DNA from: Pseudomonadota bacterium
GTDB lineage: Bacteria > Babelota > Babeliae > Babelales > CAIQNR01
Direction: 5' to 3'
Assembly (NCBI GenBank): GCA_027487215.1
Contig: JAIYDZ010000007.1
Span: 66,961 to 130,960, forward strand
Length of the DNA stretch: 64,000 nucleotides
Within the stretch, counting starts at the first letter, position 1. Each line of letters begins with the position of its first letter. Positions 11,815-58,569 of the stretch are shown here, piece after piece. The notes under the pieces were generated by a model. That model was not told the DNA's origin. It saw nothing but the letters and a program-made list of their open reading frames with translations, and made no database searches. The position numbers and the translations under genes were made by a program.

Positions 11815-11823
11815 AGGATATTC

Positions 11824-12018: not shown

Positions 12019-12043
12019 AATATTAGTATAAGGATAGAGAGCC

Positions 12044-12400: not shown

Positions 12401-12464
12401 CAAGAAATTATCCTTCTCTGTACACTTGATTCCAGTTGTATTTTCCTTAAGAGGAGAAAAAGCG

Positions 12465-13003: not shown

Positions 13004-13125
13004 CATATAAGTTTCCATTGCTGTTCCCGTATAGTGTATTTAAGTACTTTCTACGGAGCTAATCTTCTTGAGTGTGTACAACGTGTGGTACAGAAATAAT
13101 CTATTAGTGAACTAAGTGGGAAAAA

Positions 13126-39769: not shown

Positions 39770-40162
39770 TTACACAAATAATCTATTTAGATCTTTATTT
39801 TTAAGAATCATATATGCACCGACAAGGCCTGCCGGACCCGTTAAAGCATCTACGGTACGCGCTACCCCTTTAAAATCTTCAGATACTTTGTCTAAGGATT
39901 CTCTCCGTGCTTTATCAAAATAAGAACTAAAACCCAAGCTCGATAAACCAATAAAGCTATAGGTTAAACCTACCGCTTGCTGGGATGAATTACCTAAAAA
40001 TACTGCCGGAACCCCTTTTAGAATCATCAGCAATCCCGTAAAACCAAAGGTGCTGTAGCCAAATCCAGATATCCCTACTGAAGCAATGTTTGCCGCATCA
40101 CTTAAAGGTGTTGCTGACAAAGAACCCATTAAAAAGAGCGTTAAGAAATATTTCTTGTACAT
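39770..40162 (-). CDS. small secreted/membrane Gly-Ser-Ala-rich hypothetical protein
   Basis: Signal peptide MYKKYFLTLFLMGSLSA. G/S/F-rich hydrophobic stretches (VGISGFGYSTFGFTGLLMILKG, GLTYSFIGLSSLGFSS). Confidence 0.5.
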   Translation of the reverse strand: MYKKYFLTLFLMGSLSATPLSDAANIASVGISGFGYSTFGFTGLLMILKGVPAVFLGNSSQQAVGLTYSFIGLSSLGFSSYFDKARRESLDKVSEDFKGVARTVDALTGPAGLVGAYMILKNKDLNRLFV

Positions 40163-40208: not shown

Positions 40209-40688
40209 TTATAAATTTTTAGCTGCTTTAAAAGCAGCTATTGCTGCTGGCTTTAAAGGCGAATTATACACCGCTGTTCCAGCTCCTGCAATGCCCCAAA
40301 ACCAACGAGAATCTTTATAGCCTTGACGAGTGTTAAGGTTACATTTAATTTCAAACCATTGACGGCTTTTCTTGGCTGCATAATATGCACCGTATTGTAC
40401 AGTACCTACTACGGCAAAACTTACAGCCGAATTGATAAGATCTCTACTCATTTCAAAAGAAGATGGCTCATTTGGTTGCAAATCTTCAGACTGATCAGAA
40501 TTAAGAATCATTGCCACACCTAAAAAACCCAATGCTCCAGTTGCTAGGTTGCAGATACTTCTTGCTCTCAAATTACTCTCGAAAAAAGTAAGTCCATAAC
40601 CGATTTCAGCTGAAAAATCTTGTGCTGCTTTAGCACCAGTAAAAATTGAACTCATAAAAACAAATGTAAGTATTATTTTCTTATTCAT
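40209..40688 (-). CDS. small secreted/membrane Gly-Ala-rich hypothetical protein
   Basis: RBS AGAGG and signal peptide ...FTGAKAA. Stretches such as ATGALGFLGVAMIL and WFWGIAGAGTAVY. Composition similar to the neighbouring gene. Confidence 0.5.
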   Translation of the reverse strand: MNKKIILTFVFMSSIFTGAKAAQDFSAEIGYGLTFFESNLRARSICNLATGALGFLGVAMILNSDQSEDLQPNEPSSFEMSRDLINSAVSFAVVGTVQYGAYYAAKKSRQWFEIKCNLNTRQGYKDSRWFWGIAGAGTAVYNSPLKPAAIAAFKAAKNL

Positions 40689-42446: not shown

Positions 42447-45400
42447 TTAATTACGCTCTGCAAATGCTGGTATTAAAGCCGGTACAGCAAGAAGAAGTGC
42501 TGGCTTTGTTGCAGATACAGTAATACCACCTAACTTTCTTTCAATGCCACGCATGGTCATCGCATCAAGAACATCTCCTGTTGGTACACCATTGGTATCA
42601 TATAAAATGCCTCCAGGAGAACTATCAGTTGAATATGAAACATATCCTTCTTTTAAAGAATCTCCATAGGTTTCATCTGAAGACAGAACATATAAAAGCG
42701 TTCCGGTTGCACTGTCAAAACGGAGTCGATTTACTGCTTTTTCAAGTGCATTACATTTTTGTGTAAGTTCATTAAGTGCTTGTCCACTCTGTTCTTGTAA
42801 ACTTTTTTCAACCTCAGCACCATTTGCGTATGCCTGTTGTTGAAGCACTGCTGTTTGTTTTTGTAAAGCTTGATCAGGCGTAGCTTGTTGACTTGCACTG
42901 TTTGTTTGCAACGCGTTAATTGTTTGTGCTTTATTTTTTTGCACCTGTGCAATTGCTTTGTCATAAAAGTTTTTAATAGTGTCTAACGCACTTGCTTTGT
43001 ATTGACTATAATCACTATCACCTTGCTTAAGCGCAGACAAATCAACTTTCTGAAGGGAGGAAGAGTTAACCTGTTTAACAAGAGTTAATCCACCCTCATT
43101 TGATATAACCAACTTAAGCTTTAAAACCTGTAACAATTTAGCAACATCAGCAGTTACAGTGCTTGGATATTCATAACCATATACTTGTTGTTTAGTAAGT
43201 TCATGGTCGTACATAATCATATAATTAATATCATTAGGATATTGAGTACCTGATGAACTCGCGGTAGCACAACCAGGAATTGAAGAAAGCGCAGCGCTCT
43301 CAGCACGACATTGTAAAAGCGGAGAAACTGCTTGGACTACACTCAGTGAGGCGGTACGATTTTTATAATCAGCGCCTGTTTTTGCATCAAATCCAAAATA
43401 TTTTCCGCGATACATAACACCAGTAATTTTACCTTTAGTAGAAGAATTATCACGATTATCAACATATGCGATACTGCGTAAAAACTCTGAATCTGCAATC
43501 GAATCCTCTACAAAACTAAGAGCTTGATTACCTTGAGATTTGGCAACGCCAAGATGACTTAATACATAAGAACTGACAAAAGATTCACCTGTCTTAGTAA
43601 CGACTGGTTTAAAACTACCAATCAACGATTGTTCATCTTGATAAAGCGTCCACTCATCTTTGCCAACATTATAATACGCATCAAGGGTGACTAAAGAACT
43701 GGCGCTTGTTACATTGCTCATGCGATAAATCTTTTGAGAAAGCTTCATGCCTTCCTTCTTAAGATCATTAGTTGCTTTTGCAAAATTAGTAGACATACGC
43801 GTATCAAGAGTGTCAACACTCATCTGCGCATTCGTTTCAGGATCAGTTATAGTTTGTGCTGGAACAGTTTCATTCCATGTTTTGAGTATTTGGTTAGGCG
43901 CTTTAGGATCAACTGCATAGACCGATCCGTCAATTTTATACGTTTGTGGATTGAGGTAAGTAAGATTATAGGTTTTAGTAGCATCACTATATTGATAACT
44001 CACTCTACCACTCTGAGTAATAAATTCATTAAACACGAGCGAACTTGCATCAGTAAATGAACCTGAAACGGGAACAACTAATCGCATTTGTCCATCTGAA
44101 TTTCCCCATACTGTCAAAGGAGCTGTCATTAATGGTGTACCATCTTTGCCTAATGGCAGATAAGTGTCTGTTTGAGTAGATGCTGGTTGCCCGTCTGCAC
44201 TGTACTCAAATCCTGTTACCAAACTAAGATAAGAGTAACTACCATTAGCACGATTTATTTGTAATAAAATATCTGAAGGACGCTTTTGATCAACGATCTT
44301 CATATCTTTTGGTGTAAGATCCTTAGTAGTAGGAGTCTCAAAATTAACAATGTTTTTGTAAAGATAATAAGCAACACCGGTCGATGTTTTTAGTCCTTGT
44401 TCTGTATCAACCAACTGCATAAATTTACCATTTTTACCACCACCTAAGGACTTATCATCTGATGACATCGAAAGTGCTGTACGTGCTACTGGAAATGCTT
44501 TTGTTTGGGTAGAGCCATCATCTGAAACAATAATACCTTGCGCTAACGCCATTGCTCGGGCAGTTCCTGAGCCAAGCACGCTTTGTGGAATCATTTTTCC
44601 ATTGGATCCGATTTTACAATGCAAACCGGTTGGAACTTGATTGATAAGCGCATCAGAAGACTTTGCGATATTAAATGCGTAGTAATTAACCGGCTCATCT
44701 GTTTTTTGTGCAGATTGATCAATATCTTCTGGGCGAATCTCTTTCAAGAAAAACTGTTGTGTTGCACTGTCATAATACATTCCACGAGAACCTTGCACAG
44801 GTTTTAACTGGGAAATATTTGGAAATTTATAGTCATTTGCTCCTGATTGTAATGCTTCAAATACTTTCTGTTGATAACTTTTTTGACCAGATTCCTGTGT
44901 TTTCTCTTTTTCAAGTTGTGCAAGTTGGCCATCAACATATTTTTTATTTGCCGCTGAAAGCGCTGATTGCAGTTCTGCTCTAACCGGCGACCCACTTGCC
45001 TTTGTTATATAATCAACCATTTGTCTATCAAATCCAAGCAGTGTCATCTTACTTTTATCCAGAGGCAATATTTGATCAGCATACGTTTGCATAGAACCAT
45101 CTGCTCCCACAAACGCATTTTCTGAACCTGAACGGGTGTATTGTATTGATGAAACAAAACTTAAAATACTACGAGTGGTATTTGAAAGAGGGAAGTTAAC
45201 CATATCACCATCAGTTGCGACAAAGTAGTCATAAACATCTGGATTATTAAGAGTCCCGTTATAAGCCTGATAGATATAGTTACCATTATTACTATCTTTT
45301 CTTTCTATAAACATCATAAACGGGCCAAATACAAAGGGTCCCATTTTATCAGCTGTCTTACCATCCTGCAGAGTATCAACACGAACTTGTAACCCATCAG

Positions 45401-48400
45401 GTAAAACTTTACGACCAACATTTTTTAAAACACTCTCAATAACATTAACAGGATTAAACGTGTAAGCTTGACCTCTAAAGTTTACAATCGGAATCACTCG
45501 TTCAGTGTTGGTGGTTTTGTCAAAACAACGGACGAGAACAGAACCTGTTCCTATATTAACAAGAAGGTTAAGCGACTTATTATTTACAAAATTAGTACCA
45601 AGATCAGTTAGCGCACTCAGCAGAATCTCTTGTTGAGCAATAAGCACTTCAAAAGTTTTTCCATCAGCTAAAGCAGGCATTCCGACCGCACGCGCAGTAG
45701 ACATAAACTCTGATCCTGTTGCATAACGTAATGACGAAGGAAGTTCACTGATACTTAATGCACTTGCTCCTAGCTTGCCAGCAACCCACCATCCTTGAAG
45801 GGGCATTCCAACAGGCGAGGTCACTGTATACAAGAATAAATCTTCTGTTAATGAACTTTGATCTGCCGCAATGCTCCATCCTTGTGCTGTAAAATCATGC
45901 GGACCTTCTGATAAAATCATACTCCATTTTTTTTCTGGAGTTTGAGTATCCTTAAGCAATGCTTGGCGCCACAAAGTATGAACCTGTGTAAAGGTATAAT
46001 TTTCTTTTTGAGTATCTTGAGCAACTTTACCTTCTTGGGCAAGCGCTTTTTCAAGTGCAGCCATATCTTCTGTTTCTGGACTTGTAATACCAGTCAGAGC
46101 AACCGGCAATATTTCAAGTAATGAAACAGGCAATGTTTTGATATTTTTTTGATTTACACTACTTACAAAAGCACCCTGAGTTGCTTGATCTGTGACTGAC
46201 TGTACCGTGTAATCATAACGCAATGTTAAGAAATGAAATGGCGACATCTTAACGACATCTGCTTGACTGCGTGTACTGTTAATCGGATTTAAATCTGATT
46301 CTACAAACGCCGTTGCAAGAGGAACAGCTTTACCGCCATCCTGAATCTCATACCCATTACTGCAACGTGCTGGATTACTTGCACAAGGGCGCGGTTTGCC
46401 CGCAGCATCAGCAACCACAAGATCAGTCACCACACTTTTTGGAAATAAATTATAAGTAGGATCATATACTTTTGAAGTCACTAAACTGATAAGTGCTGTT
46501 ACTTTTGATGAAATATGAGGCAAGCTCATACCACTTGAAACTTCTGCTTGTGAGCCAAGCGACACGTTTAAATAATTACCGGTAGCATGATTGATCGTAA
46601 CAGGAATAACATAATCAGGGAGTGTGTGTGCACCTTCTGGACTTGATAATGCATTGTCTATTCTATAAATATAAAGACTTTTAAGAACTTCACGTTTATC
46701 GCTTACGTTCATGCCGCTCGATTTTTGATCTTTTTCAGACTGGCCAGCTTTTCCTAATTCTTGAACATTTTTAGTATTCTCAAAAGCAGCATCAATACCT
46801 GCATCTATTTTAAGATCAAGTTCTTTTACTAAGTGAGCAGTTAAACCATCTCGCAATACAAATGGACCTTGTGTAATAACATTTTTTGCAAACGAACGCA
46901 TTGCGCCAATCTGATTTAGCAGTAAGCGTCTTGTACCATATAATGATTGAAAATTACTCATTACTTTATTTGTTACTGTCTCATAATCAGCTGAACCATC
47001 TTGTGTACGCAGCAGTGTCGGTTGTGCACCAGGAATAAAGGTTGCACCAGTTACTAAACTTACTAAATACGCAATATCTTTATTAGAAACAAATTCAACA
47101 ACAGGAGCTCCAATTGCGCCCTCTTTGTTAGAGTTAATATGTGGTACTTGTGCAGGAATGATGTTATTACCTATATCAACAGCAACAAGATAATCCCAGA
47201 CACAATCTTTTAGTGATGGAGAAACAATCGATTTGATAAATCGTGCAGCAGGAGTGCTATCAGTTTGATAGACGTATACTTGCTGTGCTAATAAATGAGC
47301 ATCATATACATCTCCACCAACGCCAAGCCCCGCACTATTTCCTGTAATTTTTTCTGTAGGAATAACAGGATTATTTTCTTGCACAATAATTTGCGCGCGC
47401 TGACCGTTTTGTAATCCCTTTAGTATATTGTTACCCAGATCACGCTCAGTTCCATTAGTTTCAAACAAATCAGCATAGTGTGACAATGCGTAGGTCATTG
47501 CTCCCAATGGCGCAATACCTTGCACATGAATTCCAAATTCAGAAAGATTAATCCCATCTTTAAAAACATCCAATGTTTGTTGTAATAACGGAGAAATATG
47601 AGTAGTAGAATCGGGAACAAACAATGCTTGAATTGATGCATCAGTTGCGCCACTAAACCAATGTTTCCCCATACTGTTTGGGTTTATGCTTAAGGTAGAT
47701 TTTTGTACTCTAATGTCTCCTGATAAAGAACGTACTTTATCATCAAGCATGCTTTGAATAACAAGTTCTTTTCGTGAAGAAGTAGATTCTTTTTCTGAAG
47801 AAAGCAATGGATAAACTTTTGTAATAACACCAGCACCATTAATAACAGCACCTGTCTTTAGTTCAATGACATCTGTTACTTTACCAGAGTTAACATAGTC
47901 CATTCCAACTTCTTGATATTGATTAAGAGACATAAAGAATCGACGTGACTGTGATTTTAAACCGCTTGCCCATGGTGAGTCAGCATAGATAAAAGTACCA
48001 CTTAACGGATCTTTAAACATAACCGTTCCTGGTAAAACTTTCATAATGATAGTACCAAATTGTGCACGTGCAGTAATGGTATTATAAAGCGCTGTCGCAG
48101 CTTGCTCTTCTTGCATCTGTCTCCATATTTCTCCCGGCAAAGGGAAGATAAGAGCCATACCAACTTGATCACCTAAGAATTTACCAAACCCCTTCACTCC
48201 TCGGCCAAGGGTATTCCAAAAACCAAGATGATCGTCAATATAATTAACCATTTCATGCTCAGCAGCAATTTTTGACTCTAGAGCCTCTTTTTGTTTGATT
48301 AAAGATTCACGGTCTTCAAATTTTTTAACACGCGTTTCTATTTCTTCTGAAGTTAACTTACCTTCTTTTTGTAAGTTTTCACGAAACTCCTCAGAAGTTT

Positions 48401-49460
48401 TAGATGCTTTAGTTTGTGTAGACAATTCTTCTTCACGAAGTTTTATAAGTTTTTCTTCTGCAGAAAGACCTTCTAATTCATTTATTTTGGATTTAAACCC
48501 TAGTTCTTCATCGAGTCCACGAATCTGTTGTTCAAGATCAGCCGACTGTCTTTCATAACTACTAATACGATCTTTTGACGCTGCACGAGTTTCTTTTAAC
48601 CGCTCTCTTGTTTTTTGCGCTTCAAAACCCTTTTTTGCTTCCGTAACTTGTTCTTGTGCTTGTGCTCTATTTTCCTGAGCAGCATTTAATTCTTCACGAG
48701 CTTTCATGCGAGCGTTCCGTGCTGAATCTAATGCTTCTTGTGATTGCTTAAAAGCTGCTTCTTCTTGTTCAAAAGAAGCGTTTGCACTCTTTTTTGCTTG
48801 TAATTCTTTAGTGGTTTTTTCATGCACTGATTGTGCTTTATTAAAATCCTGTTCGGCACTTTTTAACTCTGACTGAGCTTCTTTAACTCGTGCTTCAGTG
48901 AGTTTAACTTCAGTTTTTGCTTGTACATAGTCTTCAGTTACTTGTCTAAAACTACCCTCAGGAGCGCCCGCAGAAACACCATCTTTTTTTAAATTTTCTG
49001 ATGATGGAGGTACTTCTGATAAAGATTCAGAATTGGTAACAGAATCTGTTAAATTTTCTGGTTTATTTAAAGATGATTCTGAAGGAACTGGTTGCATTTC
49101 AGCAGGAACTTGGGGAACTTCAAGATTTTGTTCATTAAAACGTGCTGATTGTAGTTGCTCTTCAGCTAGAGTTTGATTTTGAACTTCTAATTGTTGGCCC
49201 TCAAGTTGCCCAATCTCACCTTCTGCTTTGTTACCGATACTTTGTAAAGCTTCTTGTTCAAGGGCTTCACGAGATGCTACGCTAGCTGCCTCAGAACTTG
49301 GATTAAGATGACCAGCCATTCCCTCTTCAAGGGTTCTTCCAATAGCAGCTTCTTCACCTTCAAGAGCTGCGGCAAACTCGCCTGCCATAATCATTTGAGA
49401 ACATAAAACAACCAACTGAACTACTAAGAATAAACTTATTTTATTGAAAGGCCTTTTCAT
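42447..49460 (-). CDS. giant secreted protein (~2337 aa), unknown function
   Basis: Single uninterrupted frame. ATG 49460 lies 6 nt after GGGGG (the track start 49466 abuts the RBS). Signal peptide ...VVLCSQMIMAG. E/K/Q-rich coiled coil at about nt 48266-48959. No internal repeat or known motif. A second coiled coil lies near the C-terminus. Hydrophobic tail KPALLLAVPALIPAFAERN. Confidence 0.85.
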   Translation of the reverse strand: MKRPFNKISLFLVVQLVVLCSQMIMAGEFAAALEGEEAAIGRTLEEGMAGHLNPSSEAASVASREALEQEALQSIGNKAEGEIGQLEGQQLEVQNQTLAEEQLQSARFNEQNLEVPQVPAEMQPVPSESSLNKPENLTDSVTNSESLSEVPPSSENLKKDGVSAGAPEGSFRQVTEDYVQAKTEVKLTEARVKEAQSELKSAEQDFNKAQSVHEKTTKELQAKKSANASFEQEEAAFKQSQEALDSARNARMKAREELNAAQENRAQAQEQVTEAKKGFEAQKTRERLKETRAASKDRISSYERQSADLEQQIRGLDEELGFKSKINELEGLSAEEKLIKLREEELSTQTKASKTSEEFRENLQKEGKLTSEEIETRVKKFEDRESLIKQKEALESKIAAEHEMVNYIDDHLGFWNTLGRGVKGFGKFLGDQVGMALIFPLPGEIWRQMQEEQAATALYNTITARAQFGTIIMKVLPGTVMFKDPLSGTFIYADSPWASGLKSQSRRFFMSLNQYQEVGMDYVNSGKVTDVIELKTGAVINGAGVITKVYPLLSSEKESTSSRKELVIQSMLDDKVRSLSGDIRVQKSTLSINPNSMGKHWFSGATDASIQALFVPDSTTHISPLLQQTLDVFKDGINLSEFGIHVQGIAPLGAMTYALSHYADLFETNGTERDLGNNILKGLQNGQRAQIIVQENNPVIPTEKITGNSAGLGVGGDVYDAHLLAQQVYVYQTDSTPAARFIKSIVSPSLKDCVWDYLVAVDIGNNIIPAQVPHINSNKEGAIGAPVVEFVSNKDIAYLVSLVTGATFIPGAQPTLLRTQDGSADYETVTNKVMSNFQSLYGTRRLLLNQIGAMRSFAKNVITQGPFVLRDGLTAHLVKELDLKIDAGIDAAFENTKNVQELGKAGQSEKDQKSSGMNVSDKREVLKSLYIYRIDNALSSPEGAHTLPDYVIPVTINHATGNYLNVSLGSQAEVSSGMSLPHISSKVTALISLVTSKVYDPTYNLFPKSVVTDLVVADAAGKPRPCASNPARCSNGYEIQDGGKAVPLATAFVESDLNPINSTRSQADVVKMSPFHFLTLRYDYTVQSVTDQATQGAFVSSVNQKNIKTLPVSLLEILPVALTGITSPETEDMAALEKALAQEGKVAQDTQKENYTFTQVHTLWRQALLKDTQTPEKKWSMILSEGPHDFTAQGWSIAADQSSLTEDLFLYTVTSPVGMPLQGWWVAGKLGASALSISELPSSLRYATGSEFMSTARAVGMPALADGKTFEVLIAQQEILLSALTDLGTNFVNNKSLNLLVNIGTGSVLVRCFDKTTNTERVIPIVNFRGQAYTFNPVNVIESVLKNVGRKVLPDGLQVRVDTLQDGKTADKMGPFVFGPFMMFIERKDSNNGNYIYQAYNGTLNNPDVYDYFVATDGDMVNFPLSNTTRSILSFVSSIQYTRSGSENAFVGADGSMQTYADQILPLDKSKMTLLGFDRQMVDYITKASGSPVRAELQSALSAANKKYVDGQLAQLEKEKTQESGQKSYQQKVFEALQSGANDYKFPNISQLKPVQGSRGMYYDSATQQFFLKEIRPEDIDQSAQKTDEPVNYYAFNIAKSSDALINQVPTGLHCKIGSNGKMIPQSVLGSGTARAMALAQGIIVSDDGSTQTKAFPVARTALSMSSDDKSLGGGKNGKFMQLVDTEQGLKTSTGVAYYLYKNIVNFETPTTKDLTPKDMKIVDQKRPSDILLQINRANGSYSYLSLVTGFEYSADGQPASTQTDTYLPLGKDGTPLMTAPLTVWGNSDGQMRLVVPVSGSFTDASSLVFNEFITQSGRVSYQYSDATKTYNLTYLNPQTYKIDGSVYAVDPKAPNQILKTWNETVPAQTITDPETNAQMSVDTLDTRMSTNFAKATNDLKKEGMKLSQKIYRMSNVTSASSLVTLDAYYNVGKDEWTLYQDEQSLIGSFKPVVTKTGESFVSSYVLSHLGVAKSQGNQALSFVEDSIADSEFLRSIAYVDNRDNSSTKGKITGVMYRGKYFGFDAKTGADYKNRTASLSVVQAVSPLLQCRAESAALSSIPGCATASSSGTQYPNDINYMIMYDHELTKQQVYGYEYPSTVTADVAKLLQVLKLKLVISNEGGLTLVKQVNSSSLQKVDLSALKQGDSDYSQYKASALDTIKNFYDKAIAQVQKNKAQTINALQTNSASQQATPDQALQKQTAVLQQQAYANGAEVEKSLQEQSGQALNELTQKCNALEKAVNRLRFDSATGTLLYVLSSDETYGDSLKEGYVSYSTDSSPGGILYDTNGVPTGDVLDAMTMRGIERKLGGITVSATKPALLLAVPALIPAFAERN

Positions 49461-49602
49461 GGACATCCCCCTTTTTCACCACCTTTTTACAGTGGTCTCC
49501 ATCTATTGATATAGTTTCAGGGTAATCAATCAAAGAGCCGATCTACAAGTATTTTAGATAGTCAGCCTTAAATATGCTTATTTATGTAAAAACAATTTAT
49601 CA

Positions 49603-51099
49603 TTATTTATCGGTAAATTGTTTCATAAAGTCATAAAGCTGTGTTCTATCCATAACATCACTTGTTCTTCCGACCACTTTGCCTCTCTTAAGAACTACAA
49701 AGTGAGGAACTGAGGGAGCGTTATAACGTTTTACAATATCAAACGCAATTGCCGCATCAACCTTAAAAAATACTGCTTTTTCTGAAAGCTTTGTTGCCGC
49801 CCACTGTACCACCGGCAACATGTGCATACATGAAGGACAGGTTGAAGCATAAAAATCAAGTACAATAAGCTTCTCTGAACCTATGTCTTCAATATATTCA
49901 TCAAGAACACCTGTTGAAGTAATAGACTCAACTTCAATCTTATTATCAAGCTGTGGATCAAAAAAGAATGGCTCCAGTTTTTGAGCCACTTGCCCATTAA
50001 AACCAATATCACTGAGCCACCACATGGCATCAAGACCAGCCTTAATGCCATCTCCAGCTGCAACGCCTGCCTGTTTATAACGAGGATCAGAAACATCTCC
50101 TGCAGCAAAAACCCCTGCTAACGAAGTTTCTTGAGTACGGCCTTTTAAGGTGACATATCCCATAGAGTCAGTTTGAACGTAGTCTTTAACCATATGACTA
50201 TTAGGACTATGACCAATTGCTAAAAAGACTCCTCGTACATTTTCCCAGAAATCTCTTGCCTTAGTTTCTGTATTAACAATGTCAACGCCACTGACATGGC
50301 CATCAACGCCATGAATCTTAGTAACTGCATAATTATACATTACTTTAACGTTAGAGCACTGCTTAAGCCTTTCTGCCATTGCTGGAGACGCCCTCATTAC
50401 AGAACCTCGAACAAGCATTCTTACTTCACGAGCATATGCAGAGAGCTCTAAACATTCTTCTACGGCAGAATCTCCACCACCAATAACAACAACTGTATCA
50501 CCCTTATGATAAGGAGCATCACAAATTGCACAGGTGGTTACTCCATGCCCCCAGTATTCACTTTCACCAGGAACGTTTAACTTTTTAGGAGTTGCCCCTG
50601 TTCCTACAAAAAGAGAAAGTGCATGAAGGGTCTTTCCTTCTTCTGTTTTGACTGTATAAGGCCACGAGCTTAAATCAATACTTACCGCCGCATCGCTGAC
50701 CATAATAGCCCCAAAACGAGCAGCCTGAATCTCAAAATCTTTTACTACCTCTGCACCACGAATTTTCCTGATTGCTGGCCAGTTTTCAATATAAGAAGTA
50801 CCAGTTAACTGGCCCCCTGGTTGATTACCTTTTAAAACAACGGTTCTAATACGTGTCCGAGCCCCATAAAGTGCAGCCGCCAAAGAAGCTGGACCTGAAC
50901 CCAAAACAAGAAAGGGAACAAGATTGTCCATCCCTATTATTTTATCGATATTAATATCGCCTGCCTCAACAGAAGGTCCTCTTTTTACTTTTGCAGCTTG
51001 ATTACTATGCGGGTAATACTTCCAAAAAAAGCCTCCTGCAGCCCCTATAAAAAGAACTACCCCTAACAATGCTGCCAGCTTTTTTTCCGTAATGAACAT
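49603..51099 (-). CDS. trxB: membrane-anchored thioredoxin reductase fused to a C-terminal thioredoxin domain
   Basis: ATG 51099 follows GGAGG. TM helix LAALLGVVLFIGAAGGFFW, FAD site LVLGSGPASLAAA, redox CAIC (nt 50521-50532), VIGGGDSAVEE and GVFAAGD. Then a Trx fold with CPSC (nt 49828-49839) in LIVLDFYASTCPSCMHM. Confidence 0.85.
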   Translation of the reverse strand: MFITEKKLAALLGVVLFIGAAGGFFWKYYPHSNQAAKVKRGPSVEAGDINIDKIIGMDNLVPFLVLGSGPASLAAALYGARTRIRTVVLKGNQPGGQLTGTSYIENWPAIRKIRGAEVVKDFEIQAARFGAIMVSDAAVSIDLSSWPYTVKTEEGKTLHALSLFVGTGATPKKLNVPGESEYWGHGVTTCAICDAPYHKGDTVVVIGGGDSAVEECLELSAYAREVRMLVRGSVMRASPAMAERLKQCSNVKVMYNYAVTKIHGVDGHVSGVDIVNTETKARDFWENVRGVFLAIGHSPNSHMVKDYVQTDSMGYVTLKGRTQETSLAGVFAAGDVSDPRYKQAGVAAGDGIKAGLDAMWWLSDIGFNGQVAQKLEPFFFDPQLDNKIEVESITSTGVLDEYIEDIGSEKLIVLDFYASTCPSCMHMLPVVQWAATKLSEKAVFFKVDAAIAFDIVKRYNAPSVPHFVVLKRGKVVGRTSDVMDRTQLYDFMKQFTDK

Positions 51100-51210
51100 T
51101 CGCTCCTCCGTATCCACGATGAAAACACGAGATTTTGGTTTATTGTGCGCCAGTATATCAAAAAGAATTAATAAAGATGACCTTATTTTATAAAAGTCGC
51201 TAAAGGGTCT

Positions 51211-51239
51211 TTGACAAGCCCTTACTGGTCACGTATTCT
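51211..51239 (+). promoter_or_regulatory. candidate sigma70-type promoter of the FtsH-like gene
   Basis: TTGACA (51211-16), a 17-nt spacer, then TATTCT (51234-39), about 60 nt upstream of ATG 51298. Confidence 0.4.
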
Positions 51240-51297
51240 TTAAATACTTTTCATAAAAAAATGACGGCTCTCAAAGCCATAAAATAGGGGTGTTTTT

Positions 51298-54200
51298 ATG
51301 CTGTTAACTCGGATGTTAAATAAGCTTATTAAGAAAATTTTTTTTATAGCGCTCTGTACTCTTTCTTTCAATTCAACCTACGCATTACTGCCAATGAGAA
51401 TGGGGCTAGAAAATCAAGCGTCCGCCTTAGATGAAGACAAAGTGCTTCAAGCTCGAGTCCTTCAACAAATTGACGCTCTCTTACTGTTTATTCCTTCAGC
51501 CGGCTCACGCCTACAAACACTCAAGCTTTCAAAAGAAAAAGTAACTGAAATTAGAGAAATGCTTACCGATCTTCAAAAAAGTTTACAACTTCACAAAGCA
51601 CGCGCAACATTCAATGCAGACAAAGAAAAACTGGCAAAACTTTCACTTTTGCTCAATGGTCTTACCAAAGCAATCCATGTATCTCTAACAAAATCATTTT
51701 CAAAAATGCCAGATGTCAATCCCGCAGACATCAATCGATCGATCAAAGAGATAACGCCCGAACAAATGAATCAGTTGATGGAAGAAACTGAGAAAAATTT
51801 AAATGACTTTCAGCACCTTGTTAACAACATGGGAAAAAACATTTTTAATCGTTGGTACACCAAAGCATCAGACTGGTGGAATAAACCCTTATTTACAATT
51901 TCTTCATTCAGCCAAAAAAACGCTCAAGTCTATCCCTGGTCAATTGTTAAACGCGCATTTTCTTACAGTGGCACTATTGCTTTAACAGTACACAATTTAC
52001 CTGAAGCGCAGCTGCAATCAATTTCAAACAGTTACGTACGATCATGGGCACTTGCCATTAAAGGATTAGTCGGCGATTCTCCTATTGCAACTCAAATAAG
52101 CAAACATGAAAAATATCATGAAGTAAAAGTCGACGAAGATTATGGGTGGACAATTGGAGGAACCACTCTTCCACACAATACTTCACAAGAAAAAATTATA
52201 TATGAAGACGGCTTAAATCCAATTGATCAACAAGGATTACCTCTTGCCTATTATATGACTACCCCTGAAGGAAGAACTTGGAACGAAAAATCCTATATAT
52301 CGCTTACTATTGAAAACGGAAAAATTACTCCTAAAAAAGCTTTAGAAGATGGAAAAAGATATTTTGTTGATGCTGGCAACGGTATGACGATCCCTTTTAA
52401 TAACACAGATGCCGAGATAATTTTAGGATCTCTCCAATTTAAAGGTCGCACTCTATTTGAACCATTCCCAGTACCAAAAGAAAGTCTCGTAAGAAGCTTC
52501 TTTGGTGAAACAACAAACAAAAAAACATACAGAGAACTTCTAGAAATCTTAAACAATAAAACTATTGCTCAAGATTTCGAAAAATTTACAAGAGCTACAA
52601 TGATAACAGACACTTCTAATGGACGTGTTCTTCAAGAATTTGAACCCGGCAGATTTAGATTCCTTGGAACTAACATTCCAGCTATACCATCTTCTGACAC
52701 TCTAAATAATCCAAATCGTATACTTCCAACTTTCAATGCCTGGAATAAAGATTTTCAATGGGAAGGTAAAACAATCGATCCCCTTCTTGTTAATCAAACT
52801 AATAAAGGCGAGCTCGCTCAATCTGTTGATAGCTCTGAGCCATTTGATAAATCTCCTCGCACTGGTGTTCTTAACTTTATCCGTAATAACTTGAGTTTTC
52901 TTGCTCATATTGATTTTAAAGCTAATTTTTTAAACGTCGCAGTAGGACCATTTGTTGCAAAACAAATTTACGATGACATTAAAATTCTTAAGGAAGAACT
53001 TCCCCTTGTTGCTGCTAACGTGCATAGAAAATTACGTGGTGAACAAGGAACATTCGTAAAAGCAAACGAACAAGAAACACCAAAAGAAACATTCGATGAT
53101 ATCGTAGGAAGAGAAGATATCAAAAAACAACTCCAACCTATTATTGATTTTGTTTCAAATCCAGAACGCAGCATTCAAGAAGGAATTGCAATTCCTCGCG
53201 GCTACCTTTTTGCGGGTGAACCTCAAACTGGTAAAAGTTTAATGGCTAAAGCTGTAGCAGGAGAAATTGCTAAAGCACTTACCGCTCAAGGTAAAAAAGA
53301 ATGTAAATTCTGGGCGCTTGATGTTGGATTTCTTATGACTAATGGTATTGGTTATTGCGTGGAATATATTAAGGCATATAACCTTGCTCCATGTGTACTT
53401 TTCTTAGATGAATTTGATTTAACCGGTGCTCAACGTAATGAAAATAAAAAATTCTTAGCAGATGCTTTAACTGCTATTAATGGATACACAACTTCCTCTG
53501 ATTTAAGTGAACTTATTATCTTCATTATTGCAACCAATAGACCAGAACATATCGACTATGCAATTCGTGCAGATGGTCGTTGTGGCACTATGATCTACTT
53601 TGAAAATCCTTATTATGATGCGCGAAAAAACTTTTTCAAAAGCTTCTTTGAAAAAAGATTTTTTGACCTCAATAATTTTGATCTTGATGTCTTAGCACAA
53701 GAAACGGAAGCCTGTTCCTATAGCACACTTACAAAGATTATCGAACAGACTGCAAGCATTGCAAAAAACAAAGCTGAAATACCATCACAAAAACATGCAA
53801 ATGAAGCTCTTGATATCGTAGTGCGAAAAGTAATTGCCGACGCTGATGAAATTCCTCAAGAAAAACGTCAAGTCATTGCTGCTCGCTATGGGGCTAAAGC
53901 ACTTGCGTCAGTCACCTTATCGCCAGAGAAGAAATTCACTGGTGTCAGCATTATGAAAATGACTGAGAAAATTAAGGAAAAACACGTACTACAACATTAT
54001 GAAGCCGTCGCTGATGCTGATGAAAAAACAGGTGTTCGTTTTGGTGGAATCTTTAGTTACCACAGTATTGATACCTATCATCTGATTTCAAATGCAGAAC
54101 GTATTAAAGAGTGTAAAATTGCTATTGCAGGAACAGTAGGCCAAAAAGTACTTGGGCTTGATTATATTGCATATGGAGAAGATGAAACAGAAGCACTTAC

Positions 54201-54726
54201 AATCGCACGACGTATCATCTTTAATGGATGTGATGAAAAACTATTACCTCGCAAAATAAGAGAACAAAAACTAGAGCAAGCATATTTGCTTGTGGAACAC
54301 TGTCGCAAAGAGATGGAAGAACTCATTGAATCTCGCAAGCAAGAGTTTGCGCACTTTGTAGACCTTCTACAACGTCGTCAGGTGCTGCGTGCAAGTGACG
54401 TGAAACAATGCTTTAAATTGAATAACTTTGATTTAATCAGCGATTATTTTGCTACACAAAAACCTGGTCATCCTGACGCTCAACCTTCTAGTGTTTCTTT
54501 CACTCAAGCTTCAAGTGAACTAAGTGGTCCAAGCAATCTTCCTGAATATACCACAGAAGATGAAGAACTTGATGCAATTGAGGAAGAAGAAGAAGAAGAG
54601 AACCAATCAATTGCCGGTCACACGATTTCTAGAGTTGCAAATGTTTCTCAAGATATTGCACGCGAAGAAGAAAAGAATAAGCAAGAAGAAAACCGTCAGA
54701 GCCAAGATCAGTTAAACGACGAGTAA
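51298..54726 (+). CDS. FtsH-derived AAA+ ATPase with degenerate M41 protease domain and long N-terminal extension
   Basis: N-terminal hydrophobic segment. Walker A GEPQTGKSLMAKAVAGE (nt 53215-53238), Walker B CVLFLDEFD (53395-53418) and IIATNRPEHID. The HEAGH position reads ARYGAK (53884-53898). Acidic tail EDEELDAIEEEEEEEN. Confidence 0.8.
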   Translation: MLLTRMLNKLIKKIFFIALCTLSFNSTYALLPMRMGLENQASALDEDKVLQARVLQQIDALLLFIPSAGSRLQTLKLSKEKVTEIREMLTDLQKSLQLHKARATFNADKEKLAKLSLLLNGLTKAIHVSLTKSFSKMPDVNPADINRSIKEITPEQMNQLMEETEKNLNDFQHLVNNMGKNIFNRWYTKASDWWNKPLFTISSFSQKNAQVYPWSIVKRAFSYSGTIALTVHNLPEAQLQSISNSYVRSWALAIKGLVGDSPIATQISKHEKYHEVKVDEDYGWTIGGTTLPHNTSQEKIIYEDGLNPIDQQGLPLAYYMTTPEGRTWNEKSYISLTIENGKITPKKALEDGKRYFVDAGNGMTIPFNNTDAEIILGSLQFKGRTLFEPFPVPKESLVRSFFGETTNKKTYRELLEILNNKTIAQDFEKFTRATMITDTSNGRVLQEFEPGRFRFLGTNIPAIPSSDTLNNPNRILPTFNAWNKDFQWEGKTIDPLLVNQTNKGELAQSVDSSEPFDKSPRTGVLNFIRNNLSFLAHIDFKANFLNVAVGPFVAKQIYDDIKILKEELPLVAANVHRKLRGEQGTFVKANEQETPKETFDDIVGREDIKKQLQPIIDFVSNPERSIQEGIAIPRGYLFAGEPQTGKSLMAKAVAGEIAKALTAQGKKECKFWALDVGFLMTNGIGYCVEYIKAYNLAPCVLFLDEFDLTGAQRNENKKFLADALTAINGYTTSSDLSELIIFIIATNRPEHIDYAIRADGRCGTMIYFENPYYDARKNFFKSFFEKRFFDLNNFDLDVLAQETEACSYSTLTKIIEQTASIAKNKAEIPSQKHANEALDIVVRKVIADADEIPQEKRQVIAARYGAKALASVTLSPEKKFTGVSIMKMTEKIKEKHVLQHYEAVADADEKTGVRFGGIFSYHSIDTYHLISNAERIKECKIAIAGTVGQKVLGLDYIAYGEDETEALTIARRIIFNGCDEKLLPRKIREQKLEQAYLLVEHCRKEMEELIESRKQEFAHFVDLLQRRQVLRASDVKQCFKLNNFDLISDYFATQKPGHPDAQPSSVSFTQASSELSGPSNLPEYTTEDEELDAIEEEEEEENQSIAGHTISRVANVSQDIAREEEKNKQEENRQSQDQLNDE

Positions 54727-54755
54727 ATCTTCTTTCATTAAAATAACTGATAGTT

Positions 54756-54796
54756 AAAAAAAAGCCTTTGAGGTTCATTCTTCAAGGGCTTTTTTT
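54756..54796 (+). terminator. rho-independent terminator of the FtsH-like gene
   Basis: GCCTTTGA (54764-71) pairs with TCAAGGGC (54782-89), including one G-U pair. Flanked by an A-run and TTTTTTT. Confidence 0.8.
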
Positions 54797-54919
54797 ATGA
54801 CTTTCATAGCACATCTTTTTCAATTTAAGCTCGAAAACTCTGATGCCTTGCAGTGATAGTATTCTTTTTTATACAGTAAACATGTAGGGGAAAGTATCTA
54901 AATGGTGGGGGAGGCTCTC

Positions 54920-55519
54920 ATGAAAAAATTTTTATTCTTTATCTTCTTTTGTATTATTGCGATCAATGATGGAAAAATAAAAGCAGCACAAATTTCGTTA
55001 GACCAACAGTTAACAGGACTTACCAATGCACTTGCCACTAAAAACTATTTTTCAGCCTCAGAGGCTCTTAAAAATCTTACTGCCATTCTGAAAACAAAGG
55101 TACAATTTTCCCTTAAAGGTGGGGAATCGAGCTTTTACACCTATGTTTCTAAGAGTGTTGATGTTGGTGATGTTATGAGACCTGATGTTCAGAAAGCACT
55201 CCATGAAGTGTTTGACTGTATCGACAAGGTCCAAAAAGTAATAGATGAAATTTCTAATGTTTACCGAACAAACTCTTTGTTACTTACACAAAATATTAGC
55301 AACACAATGAGGCTCAACCAAATAAATCTCAAAGAAATCCTCTCAAAGCAGATCCAAAACTCAAACCCAGCAGTCAGAGGATTTGAGATGCTTGGATTTA
55401 ATCTCCTAGTAATGACCGCCTATCAAGAGTTTACGTCTGTTGCGTATCAATTTATAAGAGATGTTCTGCGTGCACAAACTGACTACATTCTCTTTGAACG
55501 ATATACACCTAAAAAATAA
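54920..55519 (+). CDS. secreted helical hypothetical protein, tandem paralog A
   Basis: ATG 54920 after GGGGGAGG. The N-terminus ...FFCIIAINDGKIKAAQI and the C-terminal block LSKQIQNSNPAVRGFEMLGFN...QFIRDVLRA are shared with the next gene. Confidence 0.6.
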   Translation: MKKFLFFIFFCIIAINDGKIKAAQISLDQQLTGLTNALATKNYFSASEALKNLTAILKTKVQFSLKGGESSFYTYVSKSVDVGDVMRPDVQKALHEVFDCIDKVQKVIDEISNVYRTNSLLLTQNISNTMRLNQINLKEILSKQIQNSNPAVRGFEMLGFNLLVMTAYQEFTSVAYQFIRDVLRAQTDYILFERYTPKK

Positions 55520-55566
55520 ATTGTGACTTTAAAAGAGTTCTCGTTTTTTACAGGGGGTAAAAATCT

Positions 55567-56175
55567 ATGAATAAATCTCTTATCTATAGTTTTCTTTGTA
55601 TTATTGCAATCAACGATGGCAAAATAAAAGCCGGTCAAATTGACGGCGCAACAATTAATGAAAAACAACAGGTAGAACTCTTAAAAAATGCTCTTACTCA
55701 AAACAAACTGAATGATGCGCATGATGCACTCAAAAAACTAACGGCAAGACTTAAATTTAAAGCGTATTCTACTTTAAATGATAAATCTGCAGGGCTTTAT
55801 ACCTATCTTAAAACACCACCTGAACAACAAAAACTTATAAAAGATTCCACTGAAAAAATATTACACGAAATGTATGAATTTATTGAGAGCGTTAAAGCAG
55901 TGATGGATCCTGCTCTTGAAGTTGCAAAAAGTCATGCTACTTTACTTGCAACAATGATGAATACTTATAAAGATGGTCCAGAGATGGCACTCAAAGAAAC
56001 GCTTTCAAAGCAACTGCCAGCATCAAACCCTGTAGTAACCGTATTTGATACGTTACAATTTAATACACTTACTAAACTGTACTATGAAGAGTTTGTAACG
56101 GTAGCAAATCAGTTTGTCAGAGATGTTATGCGAGCAACAATCGACTTTGTAACTTTTGGTGGCCATAAAGCTTAG
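55567..56175 (+). CDS. secreted helical hypothetical protein, tandem paralog B
   Basis: RBS GGGGG. ...FLCIIAINDGKIKAGQI and LSKQLPASNPVVTVFDTLQFN...QFVRDVMRA are colinear with paralog A. Confidence 0.6.
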   Translation: MNKSLIYSFLCIIAINDGKIKAGQIDGATINEKQQVELLKNALTQNKLNDAHDALKKLTARLKFKAYSTLNDKSAGLYTYLKTPPEQQKLIKDSTEKILHEMYEFIESVKAVMDPALEVAKSHATLLATMMNTYKDGPEMALKETLSKQLPASNPVVTVFDTLQFNTLTKLYYEEFVTVANQFVRDVMRATIDFVTFGGHKA

Positions 56176-56594
56176 CCTTCAATTAAATCTATGCGTTCCT
56201 GATATTTTCCACCAATAAAGTCAGTCGAAAGCCATGCTTGAACCATTGCAACCGCATCTTCAGAGCTTACAAAATCTGCAGGAATAACAAGAATGTTTGC
56301 ATTATTGTGTCGTCGTGAAAGCTTTGCCACTTCAATATTCCAAGCAAGAGCAGCGTATATACCAGAAAATCGGTTGGCTGCAATCGACATCCCGATTCCG
56401 CTGCCACATAACAAAACTCCCCGTTGCGCTCTTTCGGAACGCAACGAGTCAACAACTTTTTTCACAAACACAGGAAAATCACAACGTACCGGCGAATCAC
56501 ACCCCACATCATTCCACTTATATTCAGACAGAGACATAAGAATGTCCTGCTTATGAGAAAATCCGCGGTGATCAGCTCCAATAACAAGATTCAT
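56172..56594 (-). CDS. rpiB: ribose-5-phosphate isomerase B
   Basis: LVIGADHRGF and LCGSGIGMSIAANR are RpiB/LacAB family motifs. 140 aa. Confidence 0.9.
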   Translation of the reverse strand: MNLVIGADHRGFSHKQDILMSLSEYKWNDVGCDSPVRCDFPVFVKKVVDSLRSERAQRGVLLCGSGIGMSIAANRFSGIYAALAWNIEVAKLSRRHNNANILVIPADFVSSEDAVAMVQAWLSTDFIGGKYQERIDLIEG

Positions 56595-57256
56595 GAAATC
56601 TGCTCTTGGCTATCCATTTCTGGAGCAGATGTTGCCGATTCTTCTTTTGGCAAATCCCATGCAACGGCTGAATGATATTTAGGAGTGCTGCACACCAGTT
56701 CTATACGTGAAACACCCTCAAGAATATCTCGACCTTCAGTGTCTTGACGCTCGAAACGAATTTCATACGGACGTTTATGATTGGTCAAACGTTTTCCAAA
56801 AAATCTGTTGTATTCTGGAGAAAGCTCAATAGCTTTTATTTCAAGTGGTTGATACGCAACATCACCGATTTTTAGATAAATTGACCAGACAGCCGGCTTA
56901 AGGTTTAAAGGAACCTGATGAGTACTCAGTACATAAAATGAAACAAAGTGTTCATTAGTTTTAAGTTGTCTACGCAGGAAAGTTAAATGAGCCTCTTGAG
57001 AACGGCCATGCATTGAACTAAATAGTTTTGAATACGCATCACGAATATCATCAGAAAGAAACAAAATATCAAACAACGCAACCGTCTCAAATTGGTCGTA
57101 AATTTTTATAGATCGCATGTATTTATCAACTGTAGCTTTATGGTCAGCGTGCTGCTTTCCTTGATCAAATGTTTCATTAGCCCAGTCAACTACTCCCCCA
57201 CAGCCAGGAAGCAAAACCATGCTCACGACTATGCATGCATGCATGAACACCTTCAT
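56591..57256 (-). CDS. hypothetical lipoprotein
   Basis: RBS AGAGG. Signal peptide with a lipobox-like LLPGC (MKVFMHACIVVSMVLLPGCGG). The stop overlaps the rpiB start (ATGA). Confidence 0.6.
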   Translation of the reverse strand: MKVFMHACIVVSMVLLPGCGGVVDWANETFDQGKQHADHKATVDKYMRSIKIYDQFETVALFDILFLSDDIRDAYSKLFSSMHGRSQEAHLTFLRRQLKTNEHFVSFYVLSTHQVPLNLKPAVWSIYLKIGDVAYQPLEIKAIELSPEYNRFFGKRLTNHKRPYEIRFERQDTEGRDILEGVSRIELVCSTPKYHSAVAWDLPKEESATSAPEMDSQEQIS

Positions 57257-57342
57257 ACTCGTACCTCTTTGTTATATACTTGTCACATTTAGTAGTACCA
57301 GTTAGCGTAAAAAAAATGATGCTACTTTACAAGGTAAATTCT

Positions 57343-58569
57343 ATGAGCATGAAAATTGCACGTTTCTTAGCATGGCGCTATATCACCGGTACAAGCGACT
57401 CAAACCGCATTAGTACCGTGGCAAAAATCTCTTTCTTAAGTGTTTTTACTGGAACAGCCTGCCTGGCTCTTGCAGTTTTTATTATGGCCGGGTTTGAACA
57501 GGTCCTTGCAGAAAAAATGCAAAACATTTATCCGCAACTCGTTCTTTCTGCTCCCAGCGACGGATGTTTTGACTATAAAGAACTAGAAAAACTTTTACAT
57601 ACACGCTATGAGGGGAAAATAACCCATACCGCTCCAGCTCACACAAAGCGCGTTATTTTACGATCAAAAAACTCATCTGCAACCTCAGTGGCAAACTTAA
57701 AAGCTATTGATCCTGATGCCGAGCCGCGTGTTTCTTCTCTTGAAAAAAAAGTACGTAATGTTTCTTTAAAAAATGCGCTTGTTGATAAAAAAATAATTAT
57801 TGGCACAAAACTGGCAGACTATCATAATCTTTCAGTCGGTGATGAATGCAGCCTTTTGTTTTGCGCTGATGAACAATCAGCTTCAGATGCACAATCATTT
57901 GAAACAGTACACGTAACTATTGGCGGCATTATGGATACGGGCATCATGCAATATGATAAATTTACCCTCATCTGTTCTCTTGCCATGGCACGCAAAGACC
58001 TGTCCGATGAAAGCATTACCCAAATTGGATTGAAACTTACACCAAGCACTGATGATGTTGCACTTGCACACACACTAGCAGATGATTTGGGCGTCGAATG
58101 CGATTCCTGGAAAACACTTTATCCGGCACTTGTTTCAGTTACTAAGCTTGAAAAATATGTGATGTTTTTGCTACTCATCTTGGTAACGCTAATTGCAAGC
58201 GCCAATATTATCGCACTCATTTTTATGCAGATCACTCAGAAAAAAACCGACATTGCTCTTCTTAAAGTAATGGGCATGAATCACTCAAGCGTAACTGCAA
58301 TTTTTGTTTTTATGGGGACAATCTTAGCCTCGTGTGCAGCGTTTAGTGGACTGTGTGCAGCACTACTTATTGGAATACTTCTTGAACAATATCCTTTTAT
58401 CACTCTTCCTGATGCCTATCTATGTACCCATTTACCCATTTATATTGAATGGCCTCTAGTTATCCTCATTTTTGCAGTCATTATTGTAATTAGTATGTGT
58501 GCCTCATTATTTGCAGCATACTCAACACGGTATATCAACTGCTCAACAACTCTTAGGTTTGAAGGATAG
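57343..58569 (+). CDS. lipoprotein-release ABC transporter permease, LolC/LolE (FtsX/MacB-type)
   Basis: ARFLAWRYITG...RISTVAKISFLSVFTGTACLALAVFIMAGFEQ, a large periplasmic loop and a C-terminal FtsX 3-TM bundle ending ...AAYSTRYINCSTTLRFEG. No lolD is adjacent. Confidence 0.85.
   Translation: MSMKIARFLAWRYITGTSDSNRISTVAKISFLSVFTGTACLALAVFIMAGFEQVLAEKMQNIYPQLVLSAPSDGCFDYKELEKLLHTRYEGKITHTAPAHTKRVILRSKNSSATSVANLKAIDPDAEPRVSSLEKKVRNVSLKNALVDKKIIIGTKLADYHNLSVGDECSLLFCADEQSASDAQSFETVHVTIGGIMDTGIMQYDKFTLICSLAMARKDLSDESITQIGLKLTPSTDDVALAHTLADDLGVECDSWKTLYPALVSVTKLEKYVMFLLLILVTLIASANIIALIFMQITQKKTDIALLKVMGMNHSSVTAIFVFMGTILASCAAFSGLCAALLIGILLEQYPFITLPDAYLCTHLPIYIEWPLVILIFAVIIVISMCASLFAAYSTRYINCSTTLRFEG

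Follow-up and report, generated by a model that had tools for sequence, protein, structure and literature searches.

Do five neighbouring genes whose products all carry an export signal or a membrane anchor make up one machine, or do they merely share a neighbourhood? The question is raised by a 13.7-kb locus (positions 42447–56175) in a 64-kb stretch of contig JAIYDZ010000007.1 from a member of the Babeliales (Dependentiae); we refer to this stretch, which is all of the DNA that was analysed, as the window. The locus encodes a giant secreted protein, a membrane-anchored fusion of thioredoxin reductase and thioredoxin (TrxR-Trx), an AAA ATPase related to the membrane protease FtsH, and two small secreted proteins, p1 and p2. 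A preliminary description had called these genes lineage-specific and had proposed that they form an envelope machine. All five open reading frames (ORFs) were found at the coordinates given there, and the export or anchor signals also held up, being clear in the giant, TrxR-Trx, the AAA protein and p1 and limited to a short h-region in p2. As for the machine, the locus belongs to a block of core genome close to dnaA whose gene order is conserved across the Babeliales, and a dedicated five-gene machine is not supported. The account that we consider slightly more probable than not is one of independent functions kept together by ancestry: a tethered disulfide reductase, an FtsH-derived protein that would act as a scaffold or regulator, probably in partnership with canonical FtsH, and accessory secreted proteins with roles in host interaction.

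This assessment depends first on gene order. Window proteins were mapped onto 11 further independent genomes, so that the sample comprises 12; L001, L005–L009 and L012–L014 came from an exact-protein look-up, and L010 and L011 (the latter a metagenome-assembled genome of a candidate division TM6 bacterium) from a pattern scan with C-terminal domain alignment. In 12/12 genomes, the AAA gene and TrxR-Trx lie side by side and are transcribed divergently, down to ~43% (TrxR) and ~27% (AAA) identity. They adjoin directly in 9/12, and 1–3 short ORFs intervene in L008, L012 and L014. The flanks of the block are almost equally stable: RpiB, a lipoprotein, an FtsX permease and PGK border it on one side and the M17 aminopeptidase (with FtsW) on the opposite side; the distance to dnaA is a few kb. 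In the window, dnaA lies at the right end (62993 to the window end), which places the five-gene locus 7–20 kb from it. Because the same collinear block keeps RpiB, the lipoprotein, FtsX, PGK and M17, adjacency is no specific evidence for a machine, and because the whole dnaA-proximal block is collinear across the order, a synteny test is underpowered here.

Relatives of the giant occupy the slot between TrxR-Trx and M17 in nine of the 12 genomes (six directly after TrxR-Trx, plus L007, L012 and L014). No giant-like gene is present in the fully visible slot of L008, L009 and L013, all of which keep the AAA/TrxR-Trx pair. The giant was lost at least twice while the pair remained, and since three genomes keep the pair without it, the pair is independent of the giant. 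The co-occurrence and synteny that the preliminary description had proposed to check were borne out for TrxR-Trx and the AAA gene and, in most genomes, for the giant; they break down for the giant in three genomes, and the small paralogues are recognisable in the closest relatives only. Scattered orthologues, a lack of co-occurrence or clear independent functions, any of which it had said would speak against a machine, were not cleanly observed either; the genes stay together, in a test of low power. Two side observations concern the same slot. In the more distant genomes (L007, L008, L009, L012, L013 and L014), an alpha/beta-hydrolase gene (Hydrolase_4/Abhydrolase_6, ~340–375 aa) lies just downstream of TrxR-Trx, ahead of the giant or M17; neither the window nor its closest relatives have it there. 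In L012 (19393–20910), the M17 gene is broken into ORFs of 313, 149 and 75 aa, representing either a pseudogene or an assembly frameshift.

The FtsH-like gene (51298–54726, plus strand) is an ORF of 1142 aa. Its product comprises, in order, a first transmembrane (TM) helix or signal peptide (TM1), a helical and presumably periplasmic bundle, a weak second TM helix (TM2), a variable insert, an AAA module (53065–53787, plus strand, aa ~590–830), an inactive M41-fold domain (53788–54417, plus strand, aa ~831–1040) and an acidic tail. PF00004 (AAA) is the sole Pfam match, and the score against FtsH_fam (TIGR01241) is 112 bits, short of the curated cut-off of 600. The ATPase motifs are in place: Walker A (GEPQTGKS, 640–647), Walker B (LFLDEFD, 701–707), sensor-1 (N747) and the arginines of the second region of homology (SRH; R757/R761). 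While a word-indexed search found a single relative (48% identity), an exhaustive profile search found 484 representatives at E <1e-30. Nearly all of the best 150 of these 484 (>220 bits) belong to one family of 780–1100 aa proteins, which contains at least 150 clusters at 50% identity. Among the same 150, Walker A is intact and a hydrophobic segment resembling a signal peptide is found at the N-terminus in nearly every case; the only one with HExxH at the M41 site, P0165, is a true FtsH. Sensor-1 ([AG]TN) is found in 134/143 family members, and Walker B and the SRH arginines are also retained.

Alignment of the family profile with a genuine FtsH (P0277) using hhalign (probability 99.9, 424 columns) spanned the AAA module and the whole M41 domain and located two lesions. 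First, HEMGH is replaced. In the window protein the HEXXH position reads RYGAK (aa 863–867, nt 53884–53898), so the zinc site is indeed lost. The column of the catalytic Glu holds Glu in 0/141 family members, and the first and second His are retained in 105 and 63 of these, respectively. As the catalytic Glu is gone family-wide, the protein is considered proteolytically inactive, and we refer to it as pseudo-FtsH. The commonest form of the site is H[QFLM]AGH, chiefly HQAGH, and the window sub-clade has gone further, to RYGAK. HQAGH-type members have both zinc-binding His with the catalytic Glu substituted, like laboratory substrate-trap FtsH mutants; some family members may still bind zinc. 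Second, a 7-residue gap lies opposite pore-loop 1 ('EMYVGVG'), and an Ar-phi-G tripeptide (aromatic, hydrophobic, glycine) between Walker A and B was present in 13/143 members versus both FtsH controls. In classical AAA unfoldases, it is pore-loop 1 that grips the substrate and threads it. With this loop deleted, pseudo-FtsH is unlikely to be a classical threading unfoldase, and the loss across the family undercuts the unfoldase motor that had been proposed.

The fold agrees with this ancestry. An AlphaFold model built from a 36-sequence alignment had a mean pLDDT of 70.8, with the AAA and M41 part mostly >85, and Foldseek matched it to FtsH (3kds, TM-score 0.79), YME1 (0.78) and also AFG3L2, as well as to the FtsHi subunits of the Ycf2-FtsHi motor (8xku chains E and F, 0.71–0.73). 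Pseudo-FtsH therefore departs from FtsH in its HEXXH site, pore-loop 1 and curated score, and agrees with it in the M41 fold and the ATPase motifs. We consider it an FtsH-derived pseudo-protease in which, going by its motifs, ATP binding and hydrolysis should persist. The order of parts is also that of FtsH (N-terminal hydrophobic helix, extracytoplasmic domain, AAA, M41 fold), with the difference that an extra 200–400 aa lie between TM2 and the AAA module and that an acidic tail is added. This tail (54550–54723, aa ~1085–1142, EDEELDAIEEEEEEEN...) is also found in the 48%-identical orthologue P0002, the only member compared. The extracytoplasmic domain is a helical bundle of ~160 aa, as against roughly 70 aa in E. 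coli FtsH. Like the FtsHi proteins of the plant and algal chloroplast import motor, pseudo-FtsH is FtsH-derived, membrane-bound, proteolytically dead and, by its motifs, probably ATPase-competent. Unlike them, it represents a bacterial family with a different N-terminal domain, a lost pore-loop 1 and no Ycf2 or TIC context; no Ycf2-like gene was found in the loci examined. The bacterial family appears to have an independent origin from FtsHi.

For the topology of pseudo-FtsH, we infer an FtsH-like arrangement of TM1, periplasmic bundle, TM2 and cytoplasmic ATPase. The N-terminal hydrophobic segment (51337–51393, plus strand, aa 14–32) has a signal-peptide-like n-h-c layout with a TYA motif and is the only clearly hydrophobic stretch in a Kyte-Doolittle scan of the window protein. 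It is followed by the helical bundle (51427–51912, plus strand, aa ~44–205 in the AlphaFold2 models), which is predicted to be periplasmic and whose modelled part (aa 44–195) has a pLDDT of 85–90. When this N-domain was modelled alone (pLDDT 80.5), Foldseek found no significant match to a solved structure (best E 0.27). The full model continues with a 21-residue helix (aa 213–233; 51934–51996, plus strand), a poorly predicted, variable beta-rich insert (275–510) and a long helix (543–579) that runs into the AAA module. Helix 213–233, the positional homologue of TM2, is weakly hydrophobic in the window protein, but its counterparts in distant members, as placed by the N-domain alignment, are clear TM segments (e.g. 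LLPISIISLLSASVAMLIWY), and the equivalent region has a Kyte-Doolittle score (KD17) of ≥1.2 in 98/141 family members; the topology is drawn from these two observations. Helix 543–579 was considered as an alternative TM2, as TM2 of E. coli FtsH lies at a comparable position, roughly 100 residues ahead of Walker A. It was set aside, being only weakly hydrophobic and less favoured by the N-domain alignment than helix 213–233.

The divergently transcribed partner, TrxR-Trx (49603–51099, minus strand), is an NTRC-like, membrane-anchored protein of 498 aa when read from the ATG at 51099. The exact 498-aa product is on public record; a start at the in-frame GTG at 51117 would lengthen it by 6 aa to the 504-aa form (49603–51117). 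Pfam finds Pyr_redox_2 (E 2.8e-37) and Thioredoxin (aa 407–499 of the 504-aa form), PDB thioredoxin reductases match down to E 4e-66, and the nearest NCBIfam model is thioredoxin-disulfide reductase (TIGR01292; 298.2 bits, below the cut-off of 343.45). The active sites are CAIC in the reductase and CPSC in the thioredoxin. Homologues form >120 clusters at 43–65% identity, with the same 480–500 aa architecture, and are widespread in metagenomic assemblies of Babeliales/Dependentiae; the few that carry an organism name are assigned to the same group. An N-terminal TM helix (51022–51078, minus strand, aa 8–26, in the window protein) is present in 100/101 homologues scored, as is CAIC or CAVC (100/101), and the thioredoxin CxxC is mostly CPSC. 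Because FAD and NADPH are needed, the catalytic part is placed, tentatively, at the cytoplasmic face of the membrane. The term 'lineage-specific' therefore has to be given up for TrxR-Trx and the AAA protein, which belong to widespread families, and the giant also has relatives in distant Babeliales. In L014, a 1.3-Mb Babeliales contig, the anchored TrxR-Trx is a tandem duplicate (10001–11461 and 11786–13222, encoding 486 and 478 aa), and the AAA gene of the same locus is apparently split into ORFs of 174 and 746 aa.

Fusions of this kind are known elsewhere. NTRC and the Mycobacterium leprae TrxB-TrxA protein likewise join a low-Mr thioredoxin reductase to a following thioredoxin in one chain, with both CxxC sites. 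NTRC is not known to have a TM anchor, which is conserved in ~100% of the Dependentiae homologues, and the thioredoxin motif here is CPSC, not WCGPC. Thioredoxin reductase was found in all seven TM6 genomes compared by Yeoh et al., who read it as a means of oxidative-stress tolerance (PMC4776705).

Between the TrxR-Trx ATG and the AAA gene lies a divergent promoter region of 198 bp (51100–51297, no strand assigned). The promoter reported there earlier for the AAA gene is present on the plus strand, with a −35 of TTGACA (51211–51216), a 17-bp gap and a −10 of TATTCT (51234–51239). Sites of the TTGACA-17-TATTCT type occur at chance frequency in the single sequence (19 found vs 18.8 expected). 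When the spacer was aligned over 7 genomes, the −35 block (CTTTGACAA) was kept in 6/7, with TAnnnT 17 bp downstream; in L006, the −35 block is present but out of register. A second conserved block (AGTATA.CA.AAA.AA) corresponds on the minus strand to an extended −10 for TrxR-Trx (TGnTATACT, 51152–51160).

In the account that we favour, of independent functions held together by ancestry, TrxR-Trx would pass electrons from NADPH via FAD to the CAIC disulfide, from there to the CPSC of the fused thioredoxin and on to its targets, with the catalytic part at the membrane surface on the cytoplasmic side. Pseudo-FtsH would bind and hydrolyse ATP and form an FtsH-like ring without cleaving peptides, and its role would be that of a membrane scaffold, holdase or regulator driven by ATP. 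The enlarged helical domain in the periplasm would offer it a surface for binding or sensing, and its probable partner would be canonical FtsH, much as FtsH12 is the partner of FtsHi subunits in plants. The giant, with its repeats and coiled coils, and the small helical proteins would be fast-evolving, Sec-exported products with a putative role at the surface or in host interaction; these parasites have a very large secretome, in which such proteins are typical. The AAA gene and TrxR-Trx stand back to back under their own conserved sigma-70-type promoters, and the giant and the small proteins would be dispensable additions to the block.

Several observations weigh against this account. Canonical FtsH, the proposed partner, was not seen in the 64-kb window, the sole part of the genome that is visible. 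The charges flanking the TrxR-Trx anchor (+2.1 on the N side vs +1.9 on the C side) do not fix its orientation. The TM2 equivalent of pseudo-FtsH is weak in the near clade, with a KD17 of 0.8–1.4 (0.8 in the window protein). Finally, the AAA/TrxR-Trx adjacency holds even where neighbouring genes have been lost or moved (L006, L007 and L013). For most other adjacencies such persistence cannot be demonstrated, and it may point to a link in function or regulation.

What stands out most is that a membrane pseudo-FtsH and a membrane-anchored TrxR-Trx are always encoded promoter to promoter, and a functional link between the two genes is possible. We regard it as unlikely that the two proteins cooperate at the inner membrane with the giant and the small proteins as unrelated neighbours. 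One version would be redox-assisted quality control or assembly of membrane or secretory proteins, in which thioredoxin keeps Cys of clients or of the AAA protein reduced and the ATPase ring holds clients, possibly feeding them to canonical FtsH. Divergent adjacency in every genome sampled, conserved back-to-back promoters and a membrane anchor on each protein speak for it; moreover, both families are reported to be expanded in Babela, and redox control has been described for thylakoid FtsH of Chlamydomonas. Adjacency is, however, expected from ancestry alone in a block that is collinear including its unrelated genes. A conserved Cys pair in the pseudo-protease domain that thioredoxin might reduce, C939 and C1002, was also considered and rejected, as the two residues do not co-vary (62 members with both vs 60 expected).

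A bolder form of this cooperation strikes us as improbable. Here pseudo-FtsH and TrxR-Trx would be the conserved components, two in number, of a membrane device that is redox-coupled and specific to Dependentiae and that services a huge exported proteome by holding secretory and surface proteins, such as the giant, or passing them on. It would be a convergent counterpart of the Ycf2-FtsHi motor or of the Plasmodium translocon PTEX; in its extreme version, the ATPase would operate outside the cytoplasm on host-derived ATP. PTEX contains the AAA+ unfoldase HSP101, which needs its pore loop, and the thioredoxin TRX2. The likeness is one of functional analogy only, in that a parasite pairs a signal-bearing AAA+ ATPase with a thioredoxin amid massive protein export. 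There is no homology and no pore-forming partner, and pseudo-FtsH lacks the HSP101-type pore loop.

The remaining three genes bear mainly on the five-gene machine. The giant (42447–49466, minus strand; 2339 aa) is a Sec-type secreted protein with a signal peptide (aa 1–29; hydrophobic segment aa 10–28 by Kyte-Doolittle) that is conserved in all homologues. An N-terminal part rich in Glu, Ala and Gln (aa ~30–425) is predicted to be coiled-coil, the most conserved core follows (45087–48179, minus strand, aa ~430–1460), and a Gln-rich coiled coil lies near the C-terminus (aa ~2130–2250), where a hydrophobic tail is not conserved among homologues. The motif phi-phi-S-L-V-T-G-x-x-Y closes a divergent module of ~60–90 aa with copies near aa 801, 992, 1434 and 1746, three inside the core and the fourth just outside; the best pair of copies gave an hhalign probability of 78% (E 1.8e-5). 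Neither the giant nor six homologues have a Pfam match, and the SLVTG-type module matches no known family. NCBIfam gave coiled-coil-driven matches only, far below cut-off, and PDB gave coiled-coil noise only. Homologues in L001, L005 and L006 are 48, 33 and 29% identical, and profile matches in L007, L012 and L014 (E 1e-39 to 1e-41) are large signal-peptide proteins.

Downstream of the AAA gene, p1 (54902–55519, plus strand, 205 aa) and p2 (55567–56175, plus strand, 202 aa) are small secreted helical proteins in tandem. Their paralogy was upheld (40% identity, E 1e-43), and the N-terminal hydrophobic segment is clear in p1. No Pfam or other family matched either protein. A small secreted ORF lies 3′ of the AAA gene in the window (two copies), L001, L006, L010 and L011, with weak similarity and a shared N-terminal motif only; none follows the AAA gene in L005, L008 or L009, and p1 and p2 themselves are recognisable in the closest relatives only. 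That p1 and p2 might be copies of the pseudo-FtsH N-domain was rejected (hhalign probability 0.1).

The idea of a single envelope machine built from all five gene products, with the giant as its substrate for unfolding, reduction or export by the ATPase and the reductase, and with the paralogues as accessories, is highly improbable in light of these results. The shared export or anchor signals fit it, as do the relatives of the giant in the same slot and the small secreted ORF that follows the AAA gene in 5/6 genomes with the giant directly after TrxR-Trx. However, the pair persists in the three genomes that lack the giant, the paralogues are absent or unrecognisable beyond the near clade and bear no similarity to the AAA N-domain, pore-loop 1 is deleted, and thioredoxin reductase belongs to the core oxidative-stress genes in every TM6 genome studied (PMC4776705). 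Nor do the exported proteins make plausible disulfide-rich clients. The giant has 8 Cys in its 2,310 mature residues, with C1028/C1035 (a C-x6-8-C loop in the core) as the only conserved pair, and the paralogues have 0–1, so that none of them gives reason to expect a dedicated reductase.

Least probable of all is an exported ATPase, with TM2 degenerated in the sub-clade and the N-terminal segment acting as a cleavable signal peptide, that works in the periplasm or the host cytoplasm on host ATP, to which these energy parasites have access: it is made conceivable by the degenerate TM2 of the near clade and fits the single clearly hydrophobic segment with its n-h-c layout and an AXA-like site conserved in orthologues, an M41 peptidase among the predicted secreted proteins of C. 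destructans (Deeg et al.) and signal-peptide-bearing AAA fusions in Babela, but helix 213–233 aligns with unmistakable TM segments of distant members and an FtsH-type topology is the parsimonious ancestral state.

Elsewhere, the window (GC ~36%) encodes mostly housekeeping functions: CarD, MiaA, a PpiD/SurA-like protein, RecA, RNase Y, ProRS, XerC/D, DnaN, RecF, DnaB and RuvC, and further a class I tRNA synthetase, a MurD-like ligase, FtsW, the M17 aminopeptidase, RpiB, the FtsX permease, PGK and two ankyrin proteins. No RNA family was matched in an Rfam scan of the window. Cumulative GC skew is maximal at ~16–18 kb, and the coding strand flips at ~26 kb. An XerC/D-type recombinase gene lies at 18624–19556. 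As dnaN-recF (20815–23015) lies ~40 kb from dnaA, dnaA and dnaN are not neighbours in this genome. A DUF5122 beta-propeller (1419–2813), a C11 clostripain-like peptidase (5407–6687), an S8 subtilase (23356–24873) and the two ankyrin-repeat proteins (29246–29818 and 37702–38319) fit the secreted and host-interaction repertoire described for Dependentiae; in C. destructans, 44% of coding sequences have signal peptides (PMC6561590). Between FtsW and M17 are two small ORFs (39770–40162, minus strand, 130 aa; 40209–40688, minus strand, 159 aa) with N-terminal and internal hydrophobic segments, for which there was no Pfam match and no tblastn match in any related locus. On the other side of the five genes, a lipoprotein gene (56591–57256, minus strand, 221 aa, lipobox LLPGC) is divergent from a gene for an FtsX/MacB_PCD-type permease (57280–58569, plus strand), with no adjoining ABC ATPase gene. 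This pair is kept in every related locus with that side visible (34–68% identity) and is as invariant as the AAA/TrxR-Trx pair.

No paper that deals with FtsH in Dependentiae or Babela came up in a literature search; the Dependentiae literature consulted mentions a 'secreted M41' peptidase and expanded Zn proteases, and does not mention inactivity, pore-loop loss or a pairing with TrxR-Trx. FtsHi are the sole M41 pseudo-peptidases listed in a 2024 review (PMC11266112), and a review of FtsH evolution, which notes that most bacteria have a single ftsH, discusses FtsHi for photosynthetic eukaryotes only (PMC9020784). In these reviews, FtsH pseudo-proteases are thus confined to the chloroplast, where they have been turned into a motor for protein import. 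In the present case, an FtsH derivative that is single-copy and evolves fast is retained throughout a bacterial order; it has lost catalysis and the threading loop, has kept the ATPase site, appears to have gained a large periplasmic domain and always stands beside a tethered TrxR-Trx. If the pair does not cooperate, the locus would serve as a marker block for Babeliales genomes and would counsel caution in reading function from adjacency in highly syntenic, reduced genomes. If the two proteins do cooperate, they would represent an envelope proteostasis device of a novel type, at work in obligate intracellular parasites whose exported proteins make up nearly half of the proteome, and also an independent example of the repurposing of an AAA protease.

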